DNA from: Escherichia phage LQ5 | Sequence record: OR677401 | DNA: 64,000 bases | Direction: 5' to 3' (one strand) | Shown here: positions 5,173 through 17,810 of the stretch, piece after piece | How the letters are laid out: every line of letters starts with the position of its first letter | How positions within the stretch are numbered: position 1 is the stretch's first letter | Notes under the pieces: model-generated | Databases searched by the model: none | Seen by the model: the letters and a program-made list of their open reading frames with translations, nothing else | What the model was told of the DNA's origin: nothing | Translations under genes and position numbers: made by a program

Positions 5173-5246
5173 GGCCCTGTAGCTCAATTGGTTAGAGCAT
5201 CCGGCTCATAACTGGCAGGTTTCCGGTTCAAGTCCGGATGGGGCCA
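5173..5246 (+). tRNA. tRNA with CAT anticodon (Met-type gene; probably the AUA-reading Ile tRNA as in T4); no encoded CCA
   Basis: Hand-folded cloverleaf: acceptor GGCCCTG/TGGGGCC, D stem GCTC/GAGC, anticodon loop CTCATAA, T arm TCCGG-TTCAAGT-CCGGA. Confidence 0.75.
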
Positions 5247-5958: not shown

Positions 5959-6033
5959 GTCCCGCTGGTGTAATGGATAGCATACGATCCTTCTAAGTTT
6001 GCGGTCCTGGTTCGATCCCAGGGTGGGATACCA
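5959..6033 (+). tRNA. tRNA-Arg (anticodon TCT), CCA encoded
   Basis: Hand-folded: acceptor GTCCCGC/GTGGGAT, anticodon loop CTTCTAA, T arm CCTGG-TTCGATC-CCAGG, 3' ACCA. Confidence 0.8.
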
Positions 6034-9332: not shown

Positions 9333-9619
9333 ATAAAATTGAAATCGAAATCCCGGAACACAATGACGAGAAATCTGCAGAAAAGGCTATCTATGCTCTT
9401 CTGAATAAAGTGAATACCATCGAACATGAATGTGAAGCTATTGCCGATAAGTATGGTATCCAATTCGGTACTGGTGATTATGGTTCAGGCCGTACATATT
9501 ATCCTGTCGGTTATGAATGCTCCCAGTGGTTTAAAGATGAAATTGAAAACAACGGTGGTGAAGTTGAAAATGGCGTCGTTACAGTTGGTGCTTGGATCTC
9601 CTCTTCGGCAATGTGCTAA
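9329..9619 (+). CDS. small acidic protein, member 1 of a tandem paralog family (C-terminal W-x-SSS-x-x-C)
   Basis: 96 aa; ends GAWISSSAMC; stop TAA followed by GGA forming the next gene's RBS. Confidence 0.6.
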   Translation: MNKIEIEIPEHNDEKSAEKAIYALLNKVNTIEHECEAIADKYGIQFGTGDYGSGRTYYPVGYECSQWFKDEIENNGGEVENGVVTVGAWISSSAMC

Positions 9620-10992: not shown

Positions 10993-11232
10993 ATGTGGTA
11001 TTACGCTCCGATGTCCGATAAGTCTAATGAACCGGTACGCATTACTCGCGCCAAGTTTAAAAAGATTTATGGCTTCTCTTATAAGAAGTCTGATTACGGT
11101 GTTCGTTTTGAAGATGCCCACTGTATCAATGACCCTTATGCTGAAGAAATCTCTAATGAGATAATTCCTATCATTAAGAATAATTCTGATGATATGTGGG
11201 AATTGCATAACGATTACGTCGCTGAAATTTAA
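10993..11232 (+). CDS. hypothetical protein
   Basis: 79-aa ORF with GAGGAGAA RBS. Confidence 0.5.
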   Translation: MWYYAPMSDKSNEPVRITRAKFKKIYGFSYKKSDYGVRFEDAHCINDPYAEEISNEIIPIIKNNSDDMWELHNDYVAEI

Positions 11233-15077: not shown

Positions 15078-15674
15078 ATGAAAACGTATAAAGAATTTAT
15101 CGCCGAAGCTTCTGTAGGAAAGGTCCAAGGCATTAATAAAGATGAGTGGACTTACAAAGGAAACGGCGTTGACAACCCAGGAAATGGTTTTAACGCTAAA
15201 ACAGCTCCTATTGAACGGTACTTGGCTACAAAAGCTTCCGACTTTAAAGCTTTCGCCTGGGAAGGACTTCGCTGGCGTAACGACCTAAATATTGAAGTTG
15301 ACGGACTTAAATTTGCTCATATTGAAGATGTTGTTGCTAGTAACTTAGATGCAGCTTTTGTTAAAGCTGACGGTGACCTTCGTCGCTGGAATTTAAAACT
15401 GTTCTCTAAACGGAAAGGCCCGGTATTTGTACCTAAAGCAGGTAAATGGACTATTGATAATAAATTGGCTAAAGCAGTTAACTTCGCCGGTCTTGAATTT
15501 GCCAAGCACAAATCAACATGGAAAGGTCTTGATGCAATGACTTTCCGTAAAGAATTTGCCGATGTTATGGCTAAAGGCGGCTTTAAGGCAGAAATAGATA
15601 CCTCTAAAGGTACGTTTAAAGACGCTAATATTCAGTACGCTTACGCCGTTGCTAATGCAGCCCGTGGTAATTAA
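15078..15674 (+). CDS. internal protein (IpIII-like) with capsid targeting sequence
   Basis: N-terminus MKTYKEFIAEA; 198 aa. Confidence 0.7.
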   Translation: MKTYKEFIAEASVGKVQGINKDEWTYKGNGVDNPGNGFNAKTAPIERYLATKASDFKAFAWEGLRWRNDLNIEVDGLKFAHIEDVVASNLDAAFVKADGDLRRWNLKLFSKRKGPVFVPKAGKWTIDNKLAKAVNFAGLEFAKHKSTWKGLDAMTFRKEFADVMAKGGFKAEIDTSKGTFKDANIQYAYAVANAARGN

Positions 15675-15754: not shown

Positions 15755-16171
15755 ATGACTCGTATCAACCTTACCTTAGTATCTGAATTGGCTGACCAAC
15801 ACTTAATGGCTGAATATCGTGAATTACCACGTGTTTTCGGTGCAGTTCGTAAGCATGTTGCTAATGGTAAACGTGTCCGTGATTTCAAAATCAGTCCTAC
15901 TTTTATCCTTGGCACAGGCCATGTTACATTCTTTTACGATAAGCTTGAATTTTTACGTAAGCGACAAATTGAGCTTATAGCCGAATGTTTAAAACGTGGT
16001 TTTAATATCAAGGATACTACTGTCCAGGACATTAGTGACATTCCTCAGGAATTCCGTGGTGACTATACTCCACACGAAGCTTCTATTGCTATATCTCAGA
16101 CCCGTTTGGATGAAAAAATTGCACAGCGTCCTACCTGGTACAAACATTATGGCAAGGCTATTTACGCTTAA
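15755..16171 (+). CDS. denV: endonuclease V (pyrimidine-dimer DNA glycosylase)
   Basis: 138 aa, near-identical to recalled T4 DenV ([35 protein letters not shown]). Confidence 0.95.
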
Positions 16172-16214
16172 TTAAATCCGTGATAGAATACTTCTATCAA
16201 CTTAAGGAATAACA

Positions 16215-16574
16215 ATGAAAACTTATCAAGAATTTATTACTGAATCTACTCAGCGCATTAACGAAGCTATGTCTCCTGAACAATTGGCTAAGGCTAAAGA
16301 AGGGCTGAACCCATCTGAAGTTTTTAAAGTTACAGGTAAAGACTTTGCTTCCATGGCCACTAACCAAAGTCTGGCTAAAGAACTTAAATCTAAATCTAAC
16401 TTCATTCATGCTACGTGGAATGGTGATTCTCTTACTTCAATAAGTGTGTACAATAAAAAAGGTCTCCTTAAGAGTTCTTATGGCGCGGATGCCATCCGTG
16501 TTTCTAAATCAGATTGGCATAAAAACACTACTAAAGCAGAAAAACCTCATAACCCGGCACTAGACCATCTTTAA
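16215..16574 (+). CDS. internal protein (Ip) with capsid targeting sequence
   Basis: N-terminus MKTYQEFITES. Confidence 0.7.
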   Translation: MKTYQEFITESTQRINEAMSPEQLAKAKEGLNPSEVFKVTGKDFASMATNQSLAKELKSKSNFIHATWNGDSLTSISVYNKKGLLKSSYGADAIRVSKSDWHKNTTKAEKPHNPALDHL

Positions 16575-16582
16575 GGCTTAAT

Positions 16583-16840
16583 ATGAAAACTTACCAAGAA
16601 TTTATTACAGAATCCACTTTAGTTTCTAAACGTTGGAATATGATTGTAAACGTTAAACCTTCCGGCACTGAAGTTTCTATGGCCGACCCTAATGATGACG
16701 AACTTGAGCACGCTTTTAGCTCTAAAGAAACTGACGAGAAAGTGGTTAAGCAACTGGTTGCTGATGCAGATCAACTTCGTAAAGTAGCAGATGTTGTTAA
16801 GCTGTTTACTAAGAAAGGTTTTAAACACGAAGAACGTTAA
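16583..16840 (+). CDS. internal protein (Ip) with capsid targeting sequence
   Basis: N-terminus MKTYQEFITES. Confidence 0.7.
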   Translation: MKTYQEFITESTLVSKRWNMIVNVKPSGTEVSMADPNDDELEHAFSSKETDEKVVKQLVADADQLRKVADVVKLFTKKGFKHEER

Positions 16841-16989
16841 TTAGCATTTTAAATGGGAGCAACCTGGACCTCACAATTCTGTGAGGGACTCCCGCCAACC
16901 TGTAATAAGGTCGAGCCCAAGTGCGGTAATGGGTAAATGCAGAAAGGGACGAATTAATGTGCCAAGGAACGGCCCTCAAAGGAAATACT
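16841..16989 (+). other. structured non-coding leader or small RNA candidate
   Basis: 150 nt without ORF; nested hairpin GGGAG...CCTCACA-attc-TGTGAGG...CTCCC. Confidence 0.35.
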
Positions 16990-17517
16990 ATGAAATTTTT
17001 AACTCCCATTTATCTAACCTTAATGCACGCCTTCGCTGAACGCGCCATTGAACGTTTAGACTCAGACCAATATACCTGGTATGAACCTGCTTCAAGAATG
17101 CAAGAGTTTGGTACTCTTCGACTTGATGGCGGACGCCAAACAGGTAAAACAAGTGCCCTTGCTCAGTTCGCCGCTGATTGGGTTTCCAAGGGTAATGATG
17201 TGATTGTTATGTCGAGTTCTTCGCATCGCTCGCGAGAAATTTGTAATGTAATAAAACAGGTTTCTAAGGCACACCCACATCTCCAAGTCGAAGGTCCTGG
17301 TTTTGTTGTCTATGATACTGTGCGCAGTTTCCTTGATGAAGACAATTTCCATAAGTATCGTGGACTATCTGTTACTCGATTATTGATTATTATCGAAGAG
17401 CCAATGCGCCTTCCAGCGATGGATAAGTTCTATGAAGCTTACCAGGTAATGATTAATAAATTTATGTGCCAAGGCGACAAGCCTTTGCCTCTGTTCTTTG
17501 TGATAGGAATGCAATGA
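16990..17517 (+). CDS. small P-loop NTPase
   Basis: Walker A GGRQTGKTS and Walker B-like LLIIIEEP; ATG 16990 after AAAGGAAA. Confidence 0.6.
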   Translation: MKFLTPIYLTLMHAFAERAIERLDSDQYTWYEPASRMQEFGTLRLDGGRQTGKTSALAQFAADWVSKGNDVIVMSSSSHRSREICNVIKQVSKAHPHLQVEGPGFVVYDTVRSFLDEDNFHKYRGLSVTRLLIIIEEPMRLPAMDKFYEAYQVMINKFMCQGDKPLPLFFVIGMQ

Positions 17518-17810
17518 TGACTGATGAAGAACTTTTTGAGTTCTGTTATTTCTCACGTAAGGTTCGAAGAGAGGACCTTACTGCAAATTTCGAATATGCT
17601 TATTTCTATCCATTAGAATATGTATTCATGACAGGGCCCTTTAAGGGCTCTCGTTTTAGATGTCATGCTCCTAGTATCCGATTAATGAAACAGGTTCCTT
17701 ACTTCACTCTCGAGTTCATCTCAGGGCCTTGTAAGGGTATTATTGCTCGTAGTCTCTTGACTTATGACCAAGAGATTCATATGATTTCTGATTGGAAAAA
17801 ATATGTCTAA
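17514..17810 (+). CDS. hypothetical protein
   Basis: Start overlaps upstream stop (ATGATGA). Confidence 0.5.
   Translation: MMTDEELFEFCYFSRKVRREDLTANFEYAYFYPLEYVFMTGPFKGSRFRCHAPSIRLMKQVPYFTLEFISGPCKGIIARSLLTYDQEIHMISDWKKYV

Follow-up and report, generated by a model that had tools for sequence, protein, structure and literature searches.

In the 64,000-nucleotide (nt) stretch of Escherichia phage LQ5 DNA that we analyzed (sequence record OR677401; hereafter the window), the 149-nt gap that precedes a homologue of the T4 gene vs.8 contains a structured element at positions 16853-16975 of the plus strand, and we are highly confident that this element is one copy of a real RNA family that matches no family of Rfam 15. 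Compared across phages, it comes out as a single-copy, strand-specific, pseudoknotted RNA module that is common to unrelated virulent phages and usually encoded with transfer RNA (tRNA) genes. For the fuller statement, in which the element is a widespread, phage-specific and independently folding non-coding RNA that acts in trans, the balance is only slightly in favor. The part of the window that surrounds the element (16583-17600; 1,018 nt) matches Escherichia phage WG01, a Dhakavirus of the T4-like type, with 100% identity, and the element has a G+C content of 0.537 compared to 0.39 for the window. Its parts are the following.

16853..16975 (+): whole RNA element in its T4-type version, about 120 nt; blastn match to T4 over 16855-16975 with 89% identity
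16855..16893 (+): P1 domain, from covariation and RNAalifold
16855-16859 / 16889-16893 (+): stem P1a, GGGAG with CUCCC
16860-16868 (+): P1 internal loop, CAACCUGGA
16869-16875 / 16880-16886 (+): stem P1b, CCUCACA with UGUGAGG, loop AUUC; 100% complementary
16891..16937 (+): universal 47-nt core, from the covariance-model match
16894..16934 (+): helix P2, GCC 16894-16896 with GGU 16932-16934, enclosing P3 and the invariant single strand
16898..16911 (+): hairpin P3, ACCU 16898-16901 with AGGU 16908-16911, hexaloop GUAAUA 16902-16907
16912..16931 (+): near-invariant single strand, CGAGC, a variable hexamer (CCAAGU in the window) and GCGGUAA-UG
16935..16975 (+): 3' domain specific to T4-like phages, kept across T4-like genera
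16940-16942 (+): CAG of the 3' domain, which may form a pseudoknot with CUG 16864-16866 of the P1 internal loop
16946-16950 (+): GGGAC, the conserved A(U/G)GGAC loop of the 3' domain
16961-16963 / 16971-16973 (+): terminal hairpin of the 3' domain, GCC with GGC, loop AAGGAAC; 96% paired

A reading of the letters alone (the sequence-only reading) had described a nested hairpin in this gap, with CCTCACA/TGTGAGG inside GGGAG/CTCCC, and had suggested RNA folding with covariation across related phages. This comparison indeed gave a conserved structure with covarying stems, including both stems of the hairpin: among 13 distinct T4-type sequences, the P1 pair 7-37 is AU in 11 and GC in 2, the pair 20-31 is CG in 12 and UA in 1, and the pair 22-29 is UA in 8, UG in 2 and CG in 1. 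In these sequences, 98.6% of the alignment cells of the P1 stems are paired, compared to about 50% or less when the partners are slid, and RNAalifold predicts both stems independently. The sequence-only reading saw a real structure, yet underestimated its extent: the hairpin forms the variable 5' arm of an RNA family that is widespread among phages.

The core that follows was aligned from 37 and later from 58 distinct extracted copies. Its helix P2 has only three base pairs, which covary freely among lineages: in the 58 distinct sequences, the pair 6-44 is CG in 39, GC in 8, UA in 8, AU in 2 and GU in 1, with none unpaired, while the pair 5-45 is CG in 44, GC in 13 and something else in 1. The covariation score of P2 was reached by none of 500 shuffles and its pairing collapses once the partners are slid. 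Hairpin P3 has the consensus (A/G)CCU-GURRNA-AGG(U/C), where three of the four pairs are invariant in the 58 sequences and the closing pair is AU in 56 and GC in 2, the AU-to-GC double change being found in CF-SP2 and pf16. The single strand enclosed by P2 holds the invariant columns C22, A24, G25, C26, G35, G36, T37, A38 and A39 (alignment A1), and the 5-6 nt between its two invariant blocks vary freely. RNAalifold also proposed an alternative 3' pairing, of GAGCC and GCGGU with the T4-specific 3' hairpin, which we rejected: it does not covary, it conflicts with the P2 helix that covaries across lineages, and its partner segment is missing outside T4-like phages.

The P3 loop reads G-U-R-R-N-A in all 48 distinct copies, its inner triplet being UAA in 41, UAG in 4 and UGA in 3. 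Rather than as a reading frame, we read this pattern as a probable U-N-R turn within a hexaloop closed by purines, and such a turn would account for the triplet always being one of these three. A mini-ORF (open reading frame) or a tag end like that of a transfer-messenger RNA (tmRNA), with CUG followed by UAA, UAG or UGA in the P3 loop, was considered and rejected, since there is no start codon, since only 5-6 codons are in frame in most copies, and since ARAGORN and Rfam reveal no tRNA-like domain. The hexaloop of helix 44 (H44) of 23S ribosomal RNA (rRNA; positions 1093-1098, in the GTPase-associated center), GUAAUA, is identical to the commonest P3 loop, and the G-U-R-R-N-A variation fits a purine-closed loop with a UNR turn, in the manner of T-loop / UNR U-turn motifs. 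However, only the 6-nt loop is common to the element and H44, the order of helices differs and cmscan gave no match to large-subunit rRNA, so that H44 is a structural lead and not a homologue.

The P1 domain, on the 5' side of P2, differs by lineage, always forms and covaries. Within T4-like phages, two unrelated P1 domains sit on the same core, the alternative one being non-homologous, with AAAGG...CCUUU around CCUCUCCUCAUGAAC. These two 5' domains on one core amount to module swapping inside one RNA family. The alternative domain (AAAGG...CCUCUCCUCAUGAACGUCGAGUCCUCUGAGUGA...CCUUU) is itself highly conserved in T4-like genera such as Jiaodavirus, Gaprivervirus and Gelderlandvirus (for example at L099 1452-1625) and was found in the T4-like loci L018, L069, L078, L096-L099 and L101-L138.

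A short segment on the 3' side of P2 pairs with the P1 loop or internal loop, and the two words change jointly among lineages (P1 loop / 3' tail).

T4-like phages with the alternative P1: CCGA/UCGG, CACAC/GUGUG, CCUGA/UCAGG, CUCGA/UCGAG, CCAG/UUGG
pf16-like group (pf16 and L131): ACUG/CAGU, ACCG/CGGU
rV5-like phages: CCAGCA/UGCUGG, GUGAGGG/CCCUUAC
Ivi: CUCCGG/CCGGAG

Cognate helices of this pseudoknot have a mean length of 4.5 nt compared to 3.6 nt with swapped partners, which none of 2,000 permutations reached, and the duplex energy over all lineages is -12.7 compared to -10.9 kcal/mol, which was reached by 1 of 1,000 permutations; such permutation counts ignore phylogeny and are supportive rather than a proof. 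In the WG01/T4 type, only the invariant CUG/CAG is available, so that the pseudoknot would have to form from these words. Since the helices include G-U pairs, the fold is specific to the plus strand.

The RNA is also far better conserved than what surrounds it: its copies in WG01 and T4 have 89.3% identity, compared to 60.3% (nucleotides) and 38.9% (amino acids) for the vs.8 gene beside it, which indicates that the RNA itself is under purifying selection, with a constraint that is much stronger than that on its neighbors. Using a 161-nt query, blastn matched 970 phage records; using the 40-nt core, it matched 1,052 of 50,697 phage records (about 2% of deposited phage genomes), every match covering at least 80% of the query, and the site is unannotated in most records among the matches listed. 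The core follows the pattern AACCUGU-RNN-AAGGUCGAGC-N5-6-GCGGUAA and was found in the following places.

T4: directly after the denV stop codon
rV5-like Vequintavirus
Pseudomonas phage PsgM04F: inside a tRNA array
Pseudomonas phage pf16
Ivi, a coliphage of 45 kilobases (kb)
IMG/VR and metagenome contigs of 38-100 kb: several uncultured lineages

Model R1, a covariance model (CM) of the core, scored 72.9 bits (E 6e-23) at 16891-16937, its only strong match on either strand of the window, and gave 38-73 bits for 63 loci from all lineages compared to at most 30 bits for chance pattern matches. The element is present as a single copy per genome. A host or prophage origin was considered and rejected, because blastn found no match to the core at E <= 10 in 5,426 complete E. 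coli genomes and because the 32 half-pattern matches in 185,579 prokaryotic species genomes, all lacking the other half and all in GC-rich sequence, are attributable to chance: about 70 were expected (our own estimate, from 17 specified bases) and their CM scores did not exceed 30 bits. By these searches, the element is phage-specific.

We then compared the element with known RNA classes. None of the 4,227 models of Rfam 15, used at the gathering threshold and at E <= 10, describes it: at the gathering score, the window gave only two tRNAs, elsewhere; at E <= 10, the region 16780-17050 gave two chance-level matches, both outside the core; and in members of other lineages nothing overlapped the element at E <= 10. 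The known self-cleaving ribozyme classes (hammerhead, twister, twister-sister, pistol, hatchet, HDV-like, that is hepatitis delta virus-like, and hairpin) are absent from the Rfam 15 matches at E <= 10. ARAGORN found only a tRNA-Met at 5173 and a tRNA-Arg at 5959 in the window, with none at the element, its tmRNA search over the window and 17 loci (18 sources in all) was negative, and no Rfam tRNA or tmRNA model matches the element. A scan of 16100-17300 for intrinsic terminators or attenuators gave nothing inside 16841-16989. We found no description of the element in the literature, including by literal sequence strings, a search of incomplete coverage. A 2023 catalogue lists 10,006 unnamed viral RNA candidates (PMC10690425), among which the element may be included, and a 2010 review states that T4 had yielded no functionally characterized trans-acting RNA or riboswitch (PMC3014915).

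Two further ideas on its nature were rejected. Mimicry of host RNAs was suggested by identities of 8-10 nt with what we take to be the 16S 530 loop (GCGGUAAU), the 16S 3' end (GUAACAAGGU), ribonuclease (RNase) P RNA (GUGCGGUAA and AUAAGGU) and 23S H44 (GUAAUA); these short identities are at chance level by our own estimate, their order is scrambled, and blastn against E. coli genomes was empty. A CsrA-type sponge was suggested by six GGA triplets in WG01 and two GGA loops in the T4-like 3' domain, an enrichment that is modest and absent from the universal core.

Beyond the T4-like group, copies lie in or beside tRNA gene clusters, on the tRNA strand. A vs.8 homologue lies downstream on the same strand in 47 of 47 distinct T4-like loci, mostly 61-113 nt after the core, compared to none of 30 non-T4-like loci. 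In JD18-type phages, an inserted ORF separates the element from vs.8 and the gap is 459-480 nt. Many non-T4-like loci have their nearest tRNA 46-1,700 nt away, and every tRNA found in element-bearing loci is on the strand of the element, with none opposite. In L131, the element follows the last tRNA of an array by 46 nt and precedes a terminator-like hairpin with a U run; the pf16 copy comes after an acyl-carrier-like gene and before an annotated rho-independent terminator; a promoter-like site (TTGACA, 17 nt and a -10 box) comes after the copies of rV5-like phages and Ivi; and in several lineages, long complementary flanks enclose it as a long closing stem. Since no vs.8 follows outside T4-like phages, and since the contexts there are those of a tRNA strand, terminators and promoter-like sites, the element is most likely an independent module that works by itself as an RNA and not as an operator specific for vs.8.

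A nearby partner protein was also looked for and rejected: when the ORFs within 4 kb of the element were all compared with one another by blastp, in 24 loci that represent about 17 lineage groups, no protein family proved common to its neighborhoods, and the single apparent cluster near the element was an artefactual antisense ORF over the RNA. In the window, this antisense ORF is 16821-17009 (minus strand, 62 amino acids), which clusters by blastp with similar ORFs of rV5-like phages as an artefact of the conserved RNA. Such antisense ORFs are a trap for gene callers, and several deposited genomes annotate a "hypothetical protein" there.

The association with vs.8 could nevertheless mean that the element is a cis-acting 5' leader, an operator through which a protein or a ligand would set the translation or stability of vs.8 and of the downstream vs.7-regB in T4-like phages. 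This is suggested by the position of vs.8 in all 47 T4-like loci, by the lack of an intervening promoter or terminator, and by the extra 3' domain of T4-like copies, which adjoins the ribosome-binding site and carries two conserved GGA-containing loops. We consider it unlikely, because the core is equally conserved in the 30 loci without vs.8, where terminators or promoter-like sites come after the element, because an ORF intervenes in JD18-type phages, because the distance to the start codon is variable and the Shine-Dalgarno sequence is outside every conserved helix (14-27 nt past the 3' end of the conserved structure), and because vs.8 evolves fast (39% amino-acid identity) while the RNA does not. 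The sequence-only reading had left a choice between a translational operator, an attenuator and a small RNA; among these three, the small RNA fits best, while an operator or attenuator of the P-loop gene is unsupported as a general role, the former by the 30 loci just mentioned and the latter because the hairpins have no U run after them. The link with the P-loop gene is synteny inside T4-like phages and not a defining feature of the family. A riboswitch-type aptamer that senses a small molecule or an ion and controls read-through seems very improbable. Its invariant junction nucleotides and its pseudoknot are aptamer-like, and both pf16 and L131 have a terminator hairpin within about 20 nt on the 3' side, which does not evidently overlap the core. 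Against this, what lies downstream varies (vs.8, a promoter-like site, tRNAs, unrelated ORFs, or a terminator and then an independently promoted gene), no alternative pairing between the core and a terminator or a Shine-Dalgarno sequence is evident, and the element often comes after tRNAs, where a transcription unit ends.

Invariant unpaired junction nucleotides, short covarying helices, a pseudoknot and a size of 75-120 nt also make a ribozyme-like pattern, so that the element might belong to a new class of small self-cleaving ribozymes, or be another RNA-processing signal that cuts polycistronic or tRNA-containing transcripts at its site. Its position between genes or beside tRNAs on long transcripts, together with the long closing stems of several lineages, would be in keeping with such a role. 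Stems of this type resemble RNase III processing stems, and HDV-like theta ribozymes and hammerheads adjoin phage tRNAs. This possibility is nonetheless quite doubtful, considering that the Rfam 15 matches at E <= 10 include no self-cleaving family, that no cleavage-site signature can be named and that there is one copy per genome. Finally, the element could be protein-coding, as the N-terminus of T4 vs.8, or act at the DNA level, for example by anchoring recombination at the margin of the hypervariable locus of internal-protein genes. The T4 protein NP_049732 (219 amino acids) is annotated across it, and the element marks the exact boundary between the variable genes for internal proteins and the conserved vs cluster. 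On the other side, compensatory changes together with G-U pairs that suit one strand only show that an RNA fold is under selection, the frame is broken by a 1-nt indel that distinguishes WG01 from T4, vs.8 homology starts at a downstream ATG, and the frame that ends at the loop triplet is as short and startless as described above. The coding reading is already contradicted, and we give hardly any credit to either version.

Our best guess is that the element may be a trans-acting RNA that binds a conserved host component. In this model, the compact fold would present the invariant loop and junction nucleotides as a binding surface for a target that is equally conserved among hosts, most plausibly a component of the tRNA/translation machinery, or an RNA-processing or defense nuclease, and the element would bind, titrate or recruit this target in trans. 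A host target is proposed because phages that infect different hosts keep the sequence invariant. The element would be transcribed, in WG01 and other T4-like phages, within the internal-protein/vs.8 polycistronic message and would act from within it or be cut out. A bolder version, which we hold to be possible but rather unlikely, is that the element founds a new functional RNA class of unrelated virulent phages, either a small self-cleaving ribozyme or a decoy/adaptor RNA docking on a conserved host target; in the latter case, the T-loop-like GUAAUA hairpin and GCGGUAA could dock onto a tRNA, the ribosome or a tRNA-directed defense nuclease. If true, either would explain why the element travels with phage tRNA genes.

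Several observations weigh against an independent trans-acting RNA. Folding energy alone gives no signal, with -38.5 kcal/mol for 158 nt compared to -36.85 +/- 3.67 kcal/mol for dinucleotide shuffles (z = -0.45). The WG01 and T4-like copies have no flanking promoter or terminator (scan of 16583-17300), and the constant presence of vs.8 directly on the 3' side in T4-like loci is also compatible with a cis role. The classical surveys of small RNAs that are stable in T4 are reported to have shown just the eight tRNAs plus RNAs C and D, which all map to the tRNA region, and the lack of the element on such gels indicates that it probably gives no abundant stable RNA in T4. A discrete RNA species is so far a prediction. 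A secondary, lineage-specific cis effect on vs.8 is also possible in T4-like phages. Still, that the element stays conserved while every gene beside it changes suggests an important interaction that these phages share, be it with the host cell or with RNA processing. Through its association with tRNAs, the element also bears on the question of which functions the other RNAs of phage tRNA clusters have.

Other phage RNAs resemble the element in part. T4 RNA C and RNA D are also phage-encoded, small, structured RNAs that lie on the tRNA strand and are encoded with tRNA genes, and their roles are unknown (PMC3014915). The element differs from both: there is no sequence or core similarity, since blastn and model R1 on 62-74 kb of T4 matched only the denV/vs.8 site, it is about 6 kb from the T4 tRNA cluster, and it is far wider across phage families. 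GOLLD, ROOL and the HDV-like theta ribozymes found 3' of phage tRNAs are orphan structured RNAs linked to phage tRNA regions, with which the element shares the association with tRNA genes, folds supported by covariation and conserved unpaired nucleotides; it is much smaller than GOLLD and ROOL, has no Rfam match and is not known to have a catalytic activity or a cleavage site. The operators of T4 genes 32 and 43 and the HK022 put antiterminator RNA are cis-acting phage leader RNAs and, like the element in T4-like phages, structured RNAs within a polycistronic transcript, upstream of a gene. Each of those belongs to a single gene or operon of a single phage group, whereas the core of the element is found in unrelated phages and contexts.

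The genes around the element in the window are the following.

14502: lysozyme gene e
15078-15674: internal-protein gene, with a start of the MKTY(K/Q)EFI(A/T)E type
15755-16171: denV, interleaved with internal-protein genes
16215-16574 and 16583-16840: two further internal-protein-like genes, starting MKTYQEFI
16841-16989: 149-nt gap containing the RNA element
16979..17517 (+): T4 vs.8 homologue, a neighbor of the element and not part of it, with Shine-Dalgarno AAGGAA 16979-16984, ATG 16990 and stop 17515-17517
downstream of vs.8: more small ORFs of the vs cluster, then regB

We take the MKTY(K/Q)EFI(A/T)E start of three of these genes to be the T4 internal-protein capsid-targeting leader. 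The locus is a hypervariable internal-protein region, with a different gene content in each related phage examined, and the genes upstream of the element are wholly different between WG01 and T4. The only two tRNA genes of the window, Met-CAT (5173-5246) and Arg-TCT (5959-6033), compared to eight in T4, are on the strand of the element, about 11 kb upstream of it.

The downstream gene is, as the sequence-only reading had it, that of a small P-loop protein with the Walker A motif GGRQTGKTS and the Walker B motif LLIIIEEP; the protein encoded by 16990-17517 has 175 amino acids and is the T4 vs.8 homologue. Its counterpart WG01_113 bears the note "Vs.8", the protein matches phrog_1488 (a PHROG family of unknown function), no Pfam domain was found in a search for one, and tblastn alignments with T4 vs.8 start at residue 3 of the window ORF. 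The same reading had pointed to the absence of the GTTTACA early-promoter cassette, and this is correct: no T4-type early-promoter cassette (GTTTAC-type -35, TATAAT -10 and stem-loop), no other sigma-70-type promoter and no intrinsic terminator was found in 16583-17300, the nearest promoter-like site being at 16161-16189. Its statement that the gap has no ORF is true only loosely, since mechanical ORFs cross it (16881-17039 on the plus strand, an upstream ATG at 16957 in the vs.8 frame, and the minus-strand ORF 16821-17009), none of which is kept in frame among homologues.

In T4, vs.8 (NP_049732) is annotated with 219 amino acids at 64,253-64,912 of the minus strand (NC_000866; L006 2254-2913) and spans the element, so that its first 41 or so annotated codons are the RNA read as protein. 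Homology to other vs.8 proteins begins at an ATG near T4 64,789, and the 1-nt indel puts the T4-type frame out of frame with vs.8 in WG01. The extended start thus looks, from these alignments, like an error of the reference annotation. The element, with its near-invariant core and its pseudoknot, has either no annotation or, as in the T4 reference, one that makes it part of a protein; the start codon of T4 vs.8 should be corrected and the family should be added to RNA annotation resources.

Some loci have additional features near the element. In L009, a 70-kb contig (IMG/VR contig 2974548309), a tmRNA-like tag region lies about 400 nt downstream: at 10995-11082, the permuted-tmRNA model of Rfam gives a match below its threshold (33.7 bits, E 6e-5), with the tag-like frame GCA AAC GAU GAU GUU GUU CUG AUG GCU GCU UAA (ANDDVVLMAA*), and ARAGORN found no tmRNA there. 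It may be a phage two-piece tmRNA; a link between the element and tmRNA was rejected, since this is a matter of neighborhood only and nothing comparable was found in the other lineages screened. The same RNA gene cluster carries an ARAGORN tRNA with anticodon CTA at 9535-9610 (labelled tRNA-Pyl), of the amber-suppressor type, and the loop triplet of the element is UAG there.

In rV5-like phages, a motif CCC(C)UUAGAGGG(A)CUUGA(U/A)AGUGC lies upstream of the element (L004 2430-2470, L012 640-690) and, in one subgroup, also downstream; it is unexplained and could be a small hairpin, a processing site or a degenerate promoter. In contigs of 46-70 kb and in PsgM04F (L008, L009, L011, L013, L015, L073, L093 and L005), repeated long inverted repeats separate the element from tRNA-like pieces and read CACAACAG-UAA-GCA ... 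UGC-UUU/A-CGUUGUG (for example at L009 10410-10740). Their part GUGCUCUUU resembles what we take to be the boxA antiterminator of rrn operons and lambda, and these arrays look like an rRNA-operon-style array of processed, untranslated RNAs.

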